A DNA stretch of 64,000 nt. Origin: a virus. Lineage: Duplodnaviria; Caudoviricetes. Below are positions 43,666 through 48,712 of this stretch, piece by piece. How positions within the stretch are numbered: position 1 is the first letter of the stretch; each line of letters opens with the position of its first letter. Where the stretch lies: positions 1,355-65,354 of IMG/VR virus record IMGVR_UViG_3300020470_006081, one strand, 5' to 3'. The notes beneath the pieces were generated by a model. It saw only the letters and a list, made by a program, of their open reading frames with translations, was not told the DNA's origin and made no database searches. Both the position numbers and the translations under genes were made by a program.

Positions 43666-44673
43666 TCAGCTAAGATTGTTTTTATTTCCAGAAAAATATA
43701 TTTCTTGTAATTCTTGTAATAATTCTGGTGTTTCTAATCTACCCATAATATAAGCACACATATCACTAATATCATCAAAATTATTAATTTCTTTTTGATC
43801 ATATAATGCATATGCCTTTACTTTGTCTAAAACATCAACTTTATTTAATACTAAATGAGTAATTCCATTAATATTGATAGATTTAATTAACCTATCAATG
43901 TCCAACCAATCACATTGTCGAGGTCGACCAGTTGTTGCTCCGTATTCTTCACCAACTTCTCTAATTTTTTTAAATATTTTATCATCTGGCTCAAAACTTT
44001 TCTGGCCAACATAAGTGTCGTAGACTTTTCCAACACCCCAGACATTTCGAACTGCATGTGCTGGAATGCTGTTGAGTAAAGCGCTCGCAGACGTACAGTG
44101 GCTGGACGTAACATATGGGTAATCACCCCAATCAATATCCAACTCAAAGCCTTGAGCACCCTCACATAAAATTTGTACATTATTTTCATTATTAAAAAAT
44201 TCCTCATAAAGATCGATCAAAAAAGGTCTAAGCTCTAGAGCATCTTTGGCGCGGAGTCCTGTACGATTATATTTATTTCTATAAGCTGGACCTGTGCCTT
44301 TTTTAGTCGTGCCAATCTTTTGATCTCTGCTATCTTCTTCTAGATGATCACGGGTAATAATATGACAATTTTTAGCAATTTTTACTAAAGAAGTATCGAT
44401 ACCAGCCTTTCTTAGTTGACTTAATTCATTAAAAAAATGTTGGACATTTAAAACACAACCATTTCCAATAATGCTAGTGATTCCATGAAACACTCCGGCT
44501 GGTATGTAATGTGTAATAAATTTTTGCCCGTTATGATAAATTGTATGACCGGCATTACCGCCACCATTAAATCTCAATACATGCGTATATTCACCCTTTG
44601 AGCAAAGATGGTGGGTAACTTTTCCTTTCGCTTCATCTCCATGTTGTAATCCAACAACAATATCTGCAATCAT
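43666..44673 (-). CDS. purA: adenylosuccinate synthetase (short, ~335 aa)
   Basis: QHGDEAKGK, GGGNAGHT, EGAQG, YPYVTSS, GATTGRPR. Start moved to ATG 44673 (AAGGA SD) because the track's extension overlaps the tRNA. Confidence 0.9.
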   Translation of the reverse strand: MIADIVVGLQHGDEAKGKVTHHLCSKGEYTHVLRFNGGGNAGHTIYHNGQKFITHYIPAGVFHGITSIIGNGCVLNVQHFFNELSQLRKAGIDTSLVKIAKNCHIITRDHLEEDSRDQKIGTTKKGTGPAYRNKYNRTGLRAKDALELRPFLIDLYEEFFNNENNVQILCEGAQGFELDIDWGDYPYVTSSHCTSASALLNSIPAHAVRNVWGVGKVYDTYVGQKSFEPDDKIFKKIREVGEEYGATTGRPRQCDWLDIDRLIKSININGITHLVLNKVDVLDKVKAYALYDQKEINNFDDISDMCAYIMGRLETPELLQELQEIYFSGNKNNLS

Positions 44674-44690
44674 TTTTTTTCCTTTATGTT

Positions 44691-44767
44691 TGGTTGGCCC
44701 AACGGGACTTGAACCCGTGACTCCCACTTTATAAGAATGGCGCTCTAACCTACTGAGCTATGGGCCA
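44691..44767 (-). tRNA. trnI: tRNA-Ile, anticodon UAU, encoded CCA
   Basis: Acceptor TGGCCCA/TGGGCCA+A+CCA; D arm GCTC/GAGC; anticodon arm CCATT-CTTATAA-AGTGG; T arm ACGGG-TTCAAGT-CCCGT. Confidence 0.93.
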
Positions 44768-45427: not shown

Positions 45428-45976
45428 TTATTTTCTTATTTGAATTATTGGATCACTAGCTTTTCTATTATTATAATTATAATACTCTATACGAGTACCA
45501 ACAGCTTTATCAACCCAATCAGTAGTAACACCCCAGTTAGCATCTTGATTTTTACCCATATGGTGATCATAATGCCATGGCAAATGTTTCTTACACCACT
45601 CAACATCTAAGTGAGCTTTTTTATGAATTTTAAAATATCTTATTGCACATACTATTAAAGTATAGTAAAATAAAGGTGATATTAATATTGTAGGAATATG
45701 TATTAACCCCAAAGCTAATAATCCTAAAATTTCTGACCTAACAGACACATCAAACATTCCTTTACTATAATCTGAATCGTAGTTATCATTTTTACGTGAG
45801 CTTCTATGATGCGCATGCCAGTGTGAAGCCCATCTACTTTTTTTATTTTTCCCCAATCTATGTAATACATATTTATGCAATACCCACTCTAAAATATGCG
45901 AATACATAATTGCAAGTGGGATGCACAAAAGATGCAACACTGCCAACAAGGTTACCCCATAGATTGGTACCTCCAA
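45428..45976 (-). CDS. fatty-acid hydroxylase / sterol desaturase superfamily membrane protein
   Basis: His boxes EWVLHKYVLH, HWHAHH, IHKKAH, HYDHH, then NWGV; TM helices. Start uncertain. Confidence 0.82.
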   Translation of the reverse strand: MEVPIYGVTLLAVLHLLCIPLAIMYSHILEWVLHKYVLHRLGKNKKSRWASHWHAHHRSSRKNDNYDSDYSKGMFDVSVRSEILGLLALGLIHIPTILISPLFYYTLIVCAIRYFKIHKKAHLDVEWCKKHLPWHYDHHMGKNQDANWGVTTDWVDKAVGTRIEYYNYNNRKASDPIIQIRK

Positions 45977-46009
45977 TCATAACTAGCAGATAATATTATA
46001 AAAAGCTGG

Positions 46010-46441
46010 CTATTTTAAAGAAGTTCTAATAAAACCACCTCGCCGAGCCGGCTTTTTATCAGGTCACTGCTCTTCTAAACCTTTTTTACCTCTATTAGCA
46101 TCATCTTCTTTTTGTTCACCATGCTCATCATCGCGCTTATGGCCATCTTGTTCTCCAATTATTTCTTCTCGTAATAAATTGCGAACAATTGTATTACCAA
46201 ATTTCATATCATAAACACCGATATCGCCATTCTCATTCAATGAATGCCAAAGTACCTTGCCGACAGCATCTTTGTCGGAGATTCCATATCTTTCTTGAAG
46301 GTCTGAACTCAGACGCCCTTCCTTCATTCACTTGTGGTTGATCTTCTCTAATTCACCTTCAAGTTCTTTTTTTCTTTTTTTATCAGCGTCAGTTAATTCT
46401 TCATTAACAAAACTTCTAAAATTTTCAAATAATTTTTTCAT
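46010..46441 (-). CDS. leader-bearing head protein; either separate ORFs (46328-46441, 46064-46327) or one 143-aa frame with two recoded UGA codons
   Basis: One continuous frame: MKKLFENFRSFVNE...INHK-UGA-MKEGRL...GLEEQ-UGA-PDKKPARRGGFIRTSLK-UAG. Confidence 0.55.
46026..46062 (-). other. SECIS-like hairpin 3' of UGA 46064-46066
   Basis: CUGAUAAA...CCG-G-CUC-[GGC]-GAG-G-UGG...UUUAUUAG; the loop G is nt 23 counting the U of UGA as 1. Confidence 0.4.
46296..46326 (-). other. SECIS-like hairpin 3' of UGA 46328-46330
   Basis: GAAG-GGC-GUCUG-[AGUU]-CAGAC-CUUC; loop G-U at nt 23-24. Confidence 0.5.
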
Positions 46442-46461
46442 TTTTTTACTCCTTAAGGACT

Positions 46462-46737
46462 TTATTCAACTTCTTCTTCTAAACTACCCCAACTCCATCC
46501 TTCATCATCAGCCTCTAAAGACTGTTTCAGGCCGGGGTCTTCTAAAGCTTTTTTTAGTCTTCTTTCTTCTTGTTCTCTACGTTTTCTTTCTTCTGTTTCT
46601 TTTTCTAGTTTTTGCAAGTGTCTTTCCATAGCACTAGTAATTTTTGGACTGAGAATTATTTCACGTGACTGTTCATTTAAGATTTTATTTAATTCTTCTT
46701 TAATAATTCGTTTTAATTGTAATTTTGTTATTTTCAT
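46462..46737 (-). CDS. putative head-internal protein, class A leader
   Basis: MKITKLQLKRIIKEELNKILNE. Confidence 0.65.
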   Translation of the reverse strand: MKITKLQLKRIIKEELNKILNEQSREIILSPKITSAMERHLQKLEKETEERKRREQEERRLKKALEDPGLKQSLEADDEGWSWGSLEEEVE

Positions 46738-46749
46738 AAAATTGACTCT

Positions 46750-47157
46750 TTAGTAAATATTACCTAACTTTTCTTTAATTCCTTTTATTATGTCTCCAGG
46801 CTTAACATTATTTTGATCAAACCATCCTTGATTCATTTCTAAGGCATATTGAGCTGGTCCCATTGACTTAATTGGCGACATACTATGTGGAGTCATATCT
46901 TCTATGTTTAAAATAGAGCCGTCACTATTAGCATATGCAATTGATAATGGAATTTGTGTATTTTTCATCCAAAAAGATCGATCTTTCTGGTCCGGAAAAC
47001 AAAAAAGCATGCCTGAATTATTATCTAAATTTTTTCTGTGCATCAAACCTTTTTTTATACTATCAGGGCTGTGAGATATTTCAACATTAATTGGCATCCC
47101 ATTAATTGATATAGTTTCATTTAAAAACATACGCCAACTTTCAAATAGTGTTTTCAT
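46750..47157 (-). CDS. DUF192-family protein with class B leader
   Basis: MKTLFESWRMFLNE, then GLMHRK...GMLF.F...FWMKNTQIPLSIAY...ALEMNQGWF. Confidence 0.85.
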   Translation of the reverse strand: MKTLFESWRMFLNETISINGMPINVEISHSPDSIKKGLMHRKNLDNNSGMLFCFPDQKDRSFWMKNTQIPLSIAYANSDGSILNIEDMTPHSMSPIKSMGPAQYALEMNQGWFDQNNVKPGDIIKGIKEKLGNIY

Positions 47158-47507
47158 TATTCTTCAGCCCAATCTCTACATGCTTGACCTTTTGGAGTAT
47201 TTGATTTAGCCCCCGCACAGCCATGTCTAGCTTTAAAAGATTTCTTTCTTTTTGTGTTGCCAGATTTTCCAGTAACACGTACGCCTTTCTGACCCCAGTG
47301 AATTCTTTTGTAACCTTTTCCATTTTTTTTAACACACTTCATCCACTTTTTACCTTTAGAAGTAGAAGATGCTTTTTTTGTTGGTCCAGTACATCTACTA
47401 GATTTTTTCTTTTTCTCTTCTAGAGAATCTTCTTGTAAATCTTCCTCAAGAACAGCTGCTAATTCTTCTTTGATAATTTGTTGTAATTGTGATCTTGTAA
47501 TTTTCAT
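47157..47507 (-). CDS. putative head-internal basic protein, class A leader
   Basis: MKITRSQLQQIIKEELAAVLEE; WGQKG...RKKSFKARHGC domain related to that of 50936-51562. Confidence 0.7.
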   Translation of the reverse strand: MKITRSQLQQIIKEELAAVLEEDLQEDSLEEKKKKSSRCTGPTKKASSTSKGKKWMKCVKKNGKGYKRIHWGQKGVRVTGKSGNTKRKKSFKARHGCAGAKSNTPKGQACRDWAEE

Positions 47508-47734
47508 TTCTTTTTTGATAAATCCTGAGTTTTTGTTTGAAGAATATTTGATTTAATAATAAATCTTAATATTCTTTTTAGTTCAGAGTCTTTAATGTTT
47601 TTATCTTTTGCTACTTTTTTAAGATAATTTAAATCTTTTTTTGATAAACCATGGCCCTCGTCTAGACGGCGATCTCTGTAATTCTTTAGTTCTTCTTTGA
47701 TAATTTGCTCTAATTGTAATTTTGTAATTTTCAT
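47504..47734 (-). CDS. putative head-internal protein, class A leader
   Basis: MKITKLQLEQIIKEEL...LDE. Confidence 0.65.
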   Translation of the reverse strand: MKITKLQLEQIIKEELKNYRDRRLDEGHGLSKKDLNYLKKVAKDKNIKDSELKRILRFIIKSNILQTKTQDLSKKK

Positions 47735-47737
47735 ATC

Positions 47738-48712
47738 TTAAGATCTCTTTTTTGGCTTTGTACTAACATTTTTAGCTTTGCCTTTCCGATCCGGATTAGG
47801 ATCTTCTTTGCGTTTTCTACGCGCTGCGCTTTCTTTTTCAGCTTTAGTCATGGTAGCAGCTTTTTCTGGTGACGCACATTTTGGTTTTGTTGTTTGCCCG
47901 GGCTGTCTTGCGCAGGGCTTTCCATCATACTTGCCGCCAATCTGTTCCCAGCCTTTTTGTCCATCACCATCTGCATCATCAAACCATGAACGTAAATTCT
48001 CTTCCTCTAACTCTTGTTTTAATAAGCCTTCTTTTGGTACGCAATTAGGCACCATTCGTCCGCCTTTTTTCTTCATACCAACTTGTTTGTGGGTATCCCA
48101 ACATGCTTCATCTAATACATTTTGTATTTCTTCTCTAATAATATCTTCTAGTGATAGAGATTCGTTCTTCCGTTTCTTCTTCTTTTTGCCACCAGTACCC
48201 CAGTTTTTAGCGCCTTTATTACGACATTTTACAAGAGCACCAGATGCATATGCGGATGGCCAAACTTTGTATCTTGCTTTGACTTTATAATAACAAGCAT
48301 CTCTTTTTTTTGCTTTCTTTTTTTTCTTCTTGCGTTTTTTACGTTTACGTTTTTCGTCAAGCGTTTCTTCCTGTGCTTCTAGAAAAATCTCAATACCTTC
48401 AGCAATTTCTTCTTTTGTAATGTTTATCTCTTTGCCATCAGCTGCAATGATATCTTTATGGTCATGAACTCCAATATCATTACTACCTTCAATAAATTCA
48501 TCAATAAAAGCATCTAGATCAAAACCATCGGGAAGTTCAACACCTTGTTTTTTTAAAAAAGGCTCAAGCTCTTCTGGATCTTTTAACATTTTACGACCAA
48601 TAGCACCACCTTCTTTAGCGATTAGATCTCTGGCCGCAGTCTCAACTTCTTTTTTAGAAGCTTCTTTATCTTCGTTTATGTATTTTCGCCAGTTTTCAAA
48701 TAATAATTTCAT
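47738..48712 (-). CDS. modular head-internal (poly)protein, class B leader
   Basis: MKLLFENWRKYINE; basic Cys-containing modules (DACYYKVK...WPSAYASGALVKC; CWDTHKQVG...VPNCVP; LRSWF...KPCAR...PKC). Confidence 0.7.
   Translation of the reverse strand: MKLLFENWRKYINEDKEASKKEVETAARDLIAKEGGAIGRKMLKDPEELEPFLKKQGVELPDGFDLDAFIDEFIEGSNDIGVHDHKDIIAADGKEINITKEEIAEGIEIFLEAQEETLDEKRKRKKRKKKKKKAKKRDACYYKVKARYKVWPSAYASGALVKCRNKGAKNWGTGGKKKKKRKNESLSLEDIIREEIQNVLDEACWDTHKQVGMKKKGGRMVPNCVPKEGLLKQELEEENLRSWFDDADGDGQKGWEQIGGKYDGKPCARQPGQTTKPKCASPEKAATMTKAEKESAARRKRKEDPNPDRKGKAKNVSTKPKKRS

Follow-up and report, generated by a model that had tools for sequence, protein, structure and literature searches.

Does an in-frame UGA in a small viral gene separate two proteins, or is it read as selenocysteine (Sec) within one? 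The question is raised by a locus in 64,000 nucleotides (nt) of DNA from an uncultured marine T4-like virus of the Caudoviricetes (IMG/VR record IMGVR_UViG_3300020470_006081, positions 1,355 to 65,354; hereafter the window), in which one frame on the minus strand, 46441..46010, continues throughout across two UGA codons. As read from the sequence, this frame is MKKLFENFRSFVNE...KINHK-TGA-MKEGRL...GLEEQ-TGA-PDKKPARRGGFIRTSLK-TAG, or 37 + 1 + 87 + 1 + 17 = 143 positions, the last 17 codons being followed by UAG. A sequence-only reading of the same DNA had written out this two-UGA frame and described a hairpin after each UGA and an internal ATG lacking an obvious Shine-Dalgarno (SD) sequence; the frame matches exactly, both hairpins exist, each with a loop G that is nt 23 when the U of its UGA is nt 1, and nothing similar to AAGGAG lies ahead of the ATG directly 3′ of the first UGA. 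The source record is 65 kb long, with completeness rated at 36%, and the window is AT-rich (GC content ∼34%). On the coding strand of the window, the first UGA is the sole in-frame TGA junction between two open stretches, the remaining eight in-frame junctions being TAA or TAG gene boundaries. The favoured reading, which we regard as likely overall from sequence comparison, is that the gene encodes one protein and not two, with the first UGA (46330-46328) probably serving as a Sec codon.

A protein search returned 392 relatives, and DNA was taken for 26 viral loci and for 80 of the 275 metagenome relatives, giving with the window 107 sequences of subfamilies i and ii, one of which (L078) ends at a contig end before the site. 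TGA occupies the first site in 106/106 copies reaching it and in a further 7/7 copies of two more subfamilies found by profile search, for a total of 113/113, a count of related copies and not of independent events. Neither TGG, TGT/TGC, TAA nor TAG was found at this site in any of the 113 DNA copies, the last two being codons that the sequence-only reading had named as signs against its proposal, and the terminal stop of the same family's genes varies (TGA 67, TAA 37, TAG 1). Three copies are truncated by a contig end upstream of the UGA; in every other copy the frame is open there for 37–282 codons, with a leader of the MKITKxxLKxIIKEE or MKKLFENFRxFVNE type at its start. The protein is conserved in a single frame to either side of the UGA, with an invariant His at position −2 and a domain downstream, so that coding conservation extends past the UGA as had been anticipated.

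The codon 3′ of the UGA is ATG in 86/104 informative copies, and gene callers list the 87-residue open reading frame (ORF) separately and alone, as would be expected if two genes were translationally coupled, the first giving a leader peptide of 37 residues and the second a protein of 87 residues restarted at the adjoining ATG. However, in every copy the junction is TGA and keeps the frame, and the codons found in place of ATG (CTG, GTG [two copies], ATA, CTT, ACG, CTA, and AAG) leave 16 of the 104 copies without a start codon, in addition to the two with GTG. Subfamilies ii–iv, which read ...GHT-UGA-LTHV, ...AHN-UGA-ATHM, and ...QHQ-UGA-FHHA, likewise have none. Since a start codon is absent after the UGA in these copies, restart at ATG cannot be the general mechanism. 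The missing SD ahead of the internal ATG, the continuous proteins formed by homologues with Cys at this site (see below), and the uselessness of a leader joined to nothing also argue against coupled genes, which we consider very unlikely.

Hairpin 1, GUCUG[AGUU]CAGAC at 46314-46301, follows the first UGA and pairs a core stem at 46314-46310 with 46305-46301 around the loop AGUU at 46309-46306. The loop G at 46308 is nt 23 from the U at 46330 (G23/U24), a position which matches that in the selenocysteine insertion sequence (SECIS) element of Escherichia coli fdhF; a consensus for bacterial SECIS (bSECIS) elements is reportedly that of Zhang and Gladyshev in 2005. Among 69 distinct 54-nt sequences, CUG-AGUU-CAG is nearly invariant, even at synonymous sites, while adjoining codons vary freely. 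The covariation looked for in the earlier proposal is present: the stem is kept, 90.3% of its cells are paired as compared to 76.8% in shuffles, none of 500 shuffles reaches the score, and two pairs covary (pair 23:36, GC 37, AU 27, CG 3, GU 1; pair 24:35, GC 45, UA 23, GU 1). Stem covariation leaves a trace in the protein, where R..D / K..A / R..A / T..A alternate as linked residues in a way that can be understood only from the RNA. A G(U) loop lies at nt 22-27 in each of four subfamilies whose stems are unrelated in sequence; those other than the window's have other residues and unrelated stems, yet form hairpins with GGG/GGA, GUC, or GGUC(A) loops at nt 23-27.

A fixed hairpin rule (stem of ≥5 pairs; loop of 3–6 nt whose first base lies at nt 19-27; a G at loop position 1 or 2), composed after inspection of the data, was passed by 70/71 distinct first-UGA sites of the family. 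Among controls, it was passed by 3/42 ordinary TGA stops of long ORFs (window and the complete relative G001), 1/43 terminal TGAs of other family members, and 302/5766 (5.2%) of all TGA trinucleotides. On these comparative measures, hairpin 1 is under selection. The single failure of the rule, L083 (1052-1105), carries a different small GC hairpin in place of CUG-AGUU-CAG, with LSS changed to LRSP, and may be a real variant or an assembly error.

Relatives with a sense codon at the site were sought by a profile search of 1.84 billion representatives, which yielded 141 clusters, of which 31 that possibly span the site were retrieved. Cys stands at the UGA column, as H-x-C-A-x-H, in 9/31 of these clusters, and W in 19/31, the other three (P0216, P0255, and P0256) reading otherwise or not being classed. 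The W-form clusters and the sequences with TGA in their DNA (L018-L026, L211-L217) are one and the same: L052, the match of P0023, has TGA, the TGA stop of L018 appears as a final W in P0139, and both P0139 and P0023 read their own terminal TGA as W. As judged from this correspondence, W in the database proteins is the product of gene calls with genetic code table 4 on TGA and not tryptophan. In public protein sets (P0002, P0012, P0023, P0139, and others) the family is cut at the UGA or given W there; the W forms stem from table-4 calls on short AT-rich contigs, some of which also read through their own terminal TGA.

The Cys codon is TGT in viral contigs L208-L210, and no SECIS-like hairpin was found by the fixed rule in L208 and L209, the two Cys-form contigs checked. 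Among 34 records, the cultured cyanophages P-SSM7 (PSSM7_192) and S-SSM2 (CPLG_00127) have H-D-C. These cyanophage forms share H-x-C, H-x-L-x-E-x-G, Y-D-V-x-F, and H-E-H with the window protein and differ from it in having TGT/TGC where the window gene has UGA. An H-x-C in related phage domains, as put forward in the sequence-only reading, is present in nine clusters and two cyanophages. Alignment of the UGA set with the Cys set by hhalign placed the U column on C (probability 99.6%, E 4.8e-24; 28% identity). C was used in place of U in this run, a choice that biases the result towards that column; an anchor that does not depend on this stand-in is provided by the flanking His residues. A tblastn search of the window protein against 50,697 phage records gave no match, the Cys forms surfacing with a Cys-form query only. 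PSSM7_192 (L232) is annotated “possible cytitidyltransferase,” a name without support in the searches made here.

The identity of the residue in sense-codon homologues also bears on hairpin-stimulated leaky readthrough of the UGA by a normal tRNA (Trp or other), which would yield a short leader peptide and a minor full-length form. This arrangement would resemble phage Q-beta, in which the coat gene runs on past a UGA to give A1. The UGA is never swapped for a sense codon in close relatives, which would also suit a need for two products; UGA-C and UGA-A are weak termination contexts in E. coli; and no Sec machinery was found in the phages. In contrast to Q-beta A1, which arises by low-frequency insertion of Trp with no dedicated hairpin, the sense-codon relatives here have Cys and not Trp and the hairpin covaries; TGG occurs in 0/113 copies, and every database W traces to TGA read by table 4. 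In addition, three UGAs in one small protein, as found in some relatives, would give very little product, and we know of no precedent for hairpin-driven readthrough in bacteria other than SECIS. Leaky readthrough appears improbable, though less so than two coupled genes.

Selenoproteins are called by an invariant UGA, conservation of its flanks, Cys in homologues, and a SECIS-like hairpin whose loop holds a G, and together these features point to a bacterial-type selenoprotein gene; new bacterial selenoprotein families were called in this way (PMC2398784). For the first UGA, the selenoprotein interpretation of the sequence-only reading gains support from each of these four observations, including the Cys/UGA interchange, seen as Cys at the same column in distant homologues. 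As in bacterial SelB/SECIS genes, of which E. coli fdhF is the prototype, the in-frame UGA has conserved flanks, Cys homologues, and a stem-loop a few nt downstream with a G in its apical loop. Unlike those genes, the present one is carried by a bacterial virus without sel genes of its own, in a family for which no cellular members were found; TGA forms outnumber Cys forms among the relatives found, and some members contain up to three UGAs.

A further possibility is that UGA is a sense codon in the phage or host, through a suppressor tRNA of the phage or through genetic code 4 or 25. Phages with reassigned stop codons are known (PMC9523058), but TGA ends 33/136 long ORFs in G001 and 67/105 genes of the present family, and the window has its single in-frame TGA junction at this gene. 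TGA is thus an ordinary stop elsewhere in these phages, implying no code change, and a whole-genome scan of G001 gave no second convincing in-frame TGA gene. The window contains one tRNA, Ile-UAU (44691-44767), and the related phage records G001-G003 carry tRNAs for AT-rich codons (Leu-UAA, Ile-UAU, Arg-UCU, Lys-UUU, Glu-UUC, Asn, Thr-UGU, and Met). None of the phage tRNAs found reads UGA, the long tRNAs of relatives being Leu-UAA. A sense UGA is extremely improbable, the least likely of the explanations considered.

Several points weigh against Sec at the first UGA, beginning with the relatedness of the copies, the after-the-fact hairpin rule, the C-for-U stand-in, and the distance of the Cys forms noted above. 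Single-sequence folding energies of the window hairpin region are unexceptional (z −0.07 and −0.63), so that support for the hairpin is comparative and not thermodynamic, and an Rfam search of 45900-46600 at a permissive threshold gave chance snoRNA matches alone and no family. The internal proteins of phage T4, to which the product is compared below, are made in hundreds of copies, and bacterial Sec insertion is slow. No tRNA-Sec above the family cut-off was found in the phage records, sub-cut-off tRNAs reading as ordinary ones, and selB and selD are absent from the window's record and four relatives, one of which is rated 100% complete (selA was not searched). With no phage-borne decoder found, decoding must come from the host; the selC/selD check suggested in the sequence-only reading thus implies host-side decoding. 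The nearest cultured major capsid proteins are those of phages of Flavobacterium (48.7%), Microcystis, and Rhodothermus. Pelagibacter, an abundant low-GC candidate host, lacks selC, as stated in a preprint (10.64898/2026.04.03.716425). The same preprint gives Actinomarina a full Sec machinery, and nothing in the analysis links either genus to this phage. Host inference from purA was uninformative, its nearest relatives being Patescibacteria and assorted metagenome-assembled genomes at 52–64% identity; PhoH and a baseplate protein gave no close phage, and psbA, sought for the same purpose, is absent.

Whether the second UGA (46066-46064) is also read was examined in a clade whose domain ends in L-x-E-[QHS], an ending present in 25/258 family proteins retrieved. 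TGA-CCT follows this ending in 6/6 clade copies (window, L027, L031, L034, L040, and L041), giving the motif (L/I)xE-x-UGA-Pro. In L027, L040, and L041, the TGA is followed by 27 conserved in-frame codons, P-x-x-x-PGQG-x-GPG-x-P-x-x-AG-x-A-x-QYIDES, which differ mostly at third codon positions (differences by position in comparisons of these three: [5,2,9], [8,5,14], and [7,3,14]). Other frames of this stretch hold stops in the three copies, except for frame +1 of L041, and no start codon is common to them. A third TGA then follows, with 3–6 codons (PDND, PDS, or TSDDKA) before TAA or TAG. In these copies, each second and third UGA precedes a hairpin whose loop is GGUC, GUC, or GUU, and 6/6 pass the fixed rule. 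By this codon pattern, three of the five clade relatives clearly translate through the equivalent of the second UGA. The repeated C-terminal unit consists of (L/I)-x-E, one residue, and U-P, and paralogous units with Cys occur as LEE-VG-C-PSK in L040 and IQE-KS-C-PSDD in P0055. A degenerate DNA pattern for the 27-codon module matched four unrelated GC-rich contigs and added nothing to the clade.

In the window itself, hairpin 2 (GCCGG-CUC[GGC]GAG-GUGGU at 46052-34; loop GGC at 46044-46042) has its loop G at 46044, nt 23 from the U at 46066. Two explanations are that the second UGA encodes a further Sec or that it is the ordinary gene stop, with hairpin 2 acting as an intrinsic terminator. The small size of the clade, six DNA copies in all, weighs against Sec here, as do several features of the window that would favour a stop: the GC-rich stem contains one G.G mismatch and is followed by UUUUAUU at 46034-46028 with an A run flanking, hairpin 2 fails the fixed rule, and the next gene starts ∼90 nt downstream. 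The tail is common with L031 for its first seven residues alone, PDKK[P/T]AR, past which the 17 codons are unconserved, and L034 has PGEEA. However, TGA-CCT is kept within (L/I)xE-x-UGA-P throughout the clade, three members of which code beyond it, the stem change relative to L031 is compensatory with G23 retained, and a terminator scan of 45900-46800 called nothing. We rate an ordinary stop as an even chance, and readthrough as Sec in the window as slightly short of that. Of the up to two Sec residues proposed in the sequence-only reading, the first thus stands on its invariant TGA, Cys column, and hairpin, whereas for the second readthrough is evident in three relatives, the window tail is unconserved, and the hairpin is terminator-like.

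The predicted product offers few clues to function. Residues H36, U38, H66, E70, D78, and H101 are invariant and H107 nearly so, and the combination of invariant His, Glu, and Asp with U/C suggests a metal-binding or redox site. The AlphaFold model (mean predicted local distance difference test score 73, and 84–92 over residues 41-90) is a small beta-barrel of the SH3/KOW/Tudor kind. The protein falls into no Pfam family, a profile search of PDB was without matches, Foldseek against PDB returned nothing below 1e-3, the highest Z in a wide VIA-align search was 5.6, reached among generic barrels (SH3, KOW, and Tudor), and ESM Atlas gave viral hypothetical clusters alone. These structural matches are uninformative, and the fold therefore gives no function. 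The family was seen in phage and metagenome contigs only, and a scan of the genomes of 185,579 prokaryote species for the VLWHSLNE pattern found 0 relatives.

The leader relates the gene to its neighbours. Small genes nearby on the minus strand (window 46462-48712 and 46750-47157) carry leaders of the form MKITKLQLKxIIKEEL or MKxLFExWRxxxNE on unrelated bodies, one of which is a DUF192 domain (Pfam E 5.9e-31). The leader class of this gene heads genes at 46441, 47157, and 48712, and the second class those at 46737, 47507, and 47734. From its sequence, this leader-sharing neighbourhood looks like a T4-style capsid-cargo cluster. Propeptides in T4 are 10–19 residues long and cleaved after L/I-x-E (PMC9026906). 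Leaders here end in F-V-N-E in the window gene, L-N-E and I-N-E in its neighbours, and I-I-K-E-E in relatives. Relatives G001, G003, and G004 encode gp23 and a Peptidase_S77 (gp21-type) prohead protease, neither of which was found in the window's own 65-kb fragment (36% complete). From the likeness of the leader, in use and position, to the T4 capsid targeting sequence (CTS), together with the gp21-type protease in relatives, we infer that the protein may be targeted to the capsid. As with T4 IPI, IPII, IPIII, and Alt, whose CTS is described in the same source (PMC9026906), a short N-terminal leader ending at Glu is common to unrelated small neighbours, with the protease and gp23 in relatives. 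In contrast, the leader sequence is unrelated to T4's, and the window leader ends in V-N-E and not L/I-x-E. In L004, L007, L017, L010, and L018, 165–282 codons are open upstream of the UGA; a leader and a further domain come first, and a second leader-like copy lies internally before H-K-UGA, an arrangement that resembles an in-frame fusion of two cargo genes. To our knowledge, no T4 internal protein contains Sec.

In the mechanism that we propose, translation would start at the ATG at 46441, hairpin 1 would recruit host SelB with Sec-tRNA at the first UGA, and Sec would be inserted there, translation going on into the conserved domain. The product would be a member of a phage-only family, with H-x-[Sec/Cys] and several invariant His, Glu, and Asp residues on a small SH3-like barrel. 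It would probably enter the prohead, be trimmed there by the gp21-type protease, and travel with the virion. In the clade described above, the C terminus has additional (L/I)xE-x-[Sec/Cys]-Pro modules, of which the second UGA marks one. The roles of SelB and of Sec itself, capsid loading, and function are parts of this scheme that we infer. An extension of it, tentative and taken as a whole rather unlikely, is that the gene encodes a multi-Sec cargo protein of marine T4-like phages, with one Sec in a His-rich metal or redox centre (H-x-U) and further Sec in C-terminal (L/I)xE-x-U-P modules, each after a prohead-protease site. Small selenopeptides would then be freed in the capsid and, together with the protein, carried with the DNA into the next host, phage fitness would be tied to host selenium supply and Sec machinery, and the Cys form would occur in phages of Sec-less hosts such as picocyanobacteria.

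Sec decoding is known in cells and a few animal viruses. A literature search found no paper on a selenoprotein of a bacterial virus, although the PMC2398784 datasets (GOS_A, GOS_B) and the deep-Sep and BSepDB lists might contain the family; neither “phage” nor “virus” occurs in a 2026 selenoproteome review, the BSepDB paper, the deep-Sep paper, or a 2022 review. Selenoproteins of eukaryotic viruses, e.g., the poxvirus glutathione peroxidase (PMC1802603), similarly borrow the host Sec machinery but are copies of host enzymes with a eukaryotic-type SECIS, whereas the present element is of bacterial type in a family for which no cellular members were found. If the proposed decoding is correct, abundant ocean phages would need selenium and host SelABCD to make part of their virion, gene callers would systematically split or mistranslate this gene, the Sec/Cys split could mark host range, and a new His-rich Sec site would be opened to biochemistry.

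Table 1. Positions in the window of the recoded gene and its elements, with the basis for each assignment.
Feature	Position	Strand	Basis or remark
Whole recoded gene	46010..46441	(-)	143 positions if both UGAs are read, 125 if the first alone
Shine-Dalgarno-like AAGGAG, 7 nt 5′ of the ATG at 46441	46449..46454	(-)	Read from sequence
N-terminal leader MKKLFENFRSFVNE, capsid-targeting-like, common to unrelated neighbour genes	46400..46441	(-)	MKTLFESWRMFLNE at 47157, MKLLFENWRKYINE at 48712; PMC9026906
Charged linker, its final part with invariant His H36, two residues ahead of the UGA	46331..46399	(-)	Alignment
UGA no. 1, proposed Sec codon (H-K-U)	46328..46330	(-)	TGA in 113/113 copies reaching the site; Cys in distant homologues
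SECIS-like hairpin 1, nt 15-32 after the U	46299..46316	(-)	Covariation and hairpin-rule control
Conserved domain (WHSLxExG, YDxKFG, H...H), modelled as a small SH3-like beta-barrel	46067..46327	(-)	Alignment and model
UGA no. 2 in L-E-E-Q-UGA-P-D, possible second Sec codon or true stop	46064..46066	(-)	Clade comparison
Hairpin 2, nt 15-33 after the second U, possible SECIS, terminator, or both	46034..46052	(-)	Fold and comparison with L031
17-codon tail PDKKPARRGGFIRTSLK and UAG	46010..46063	(-)	Clade comparison

Directly downstream of the gene lies a membrane protein of the fatty-acid-hydroxylase family (45428-45976, minus strand; Pfam E 2.2e-8), and the same neighbour is present in L027 and L040. 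A short-form adenylosuccinate synthetase gene (purA) is located further along at 43666-44727 on the minus strand. Its GTG-start ORF overlaps the tRNA-Ile(UAU) at 44691-44767, and the true start is probably further in.

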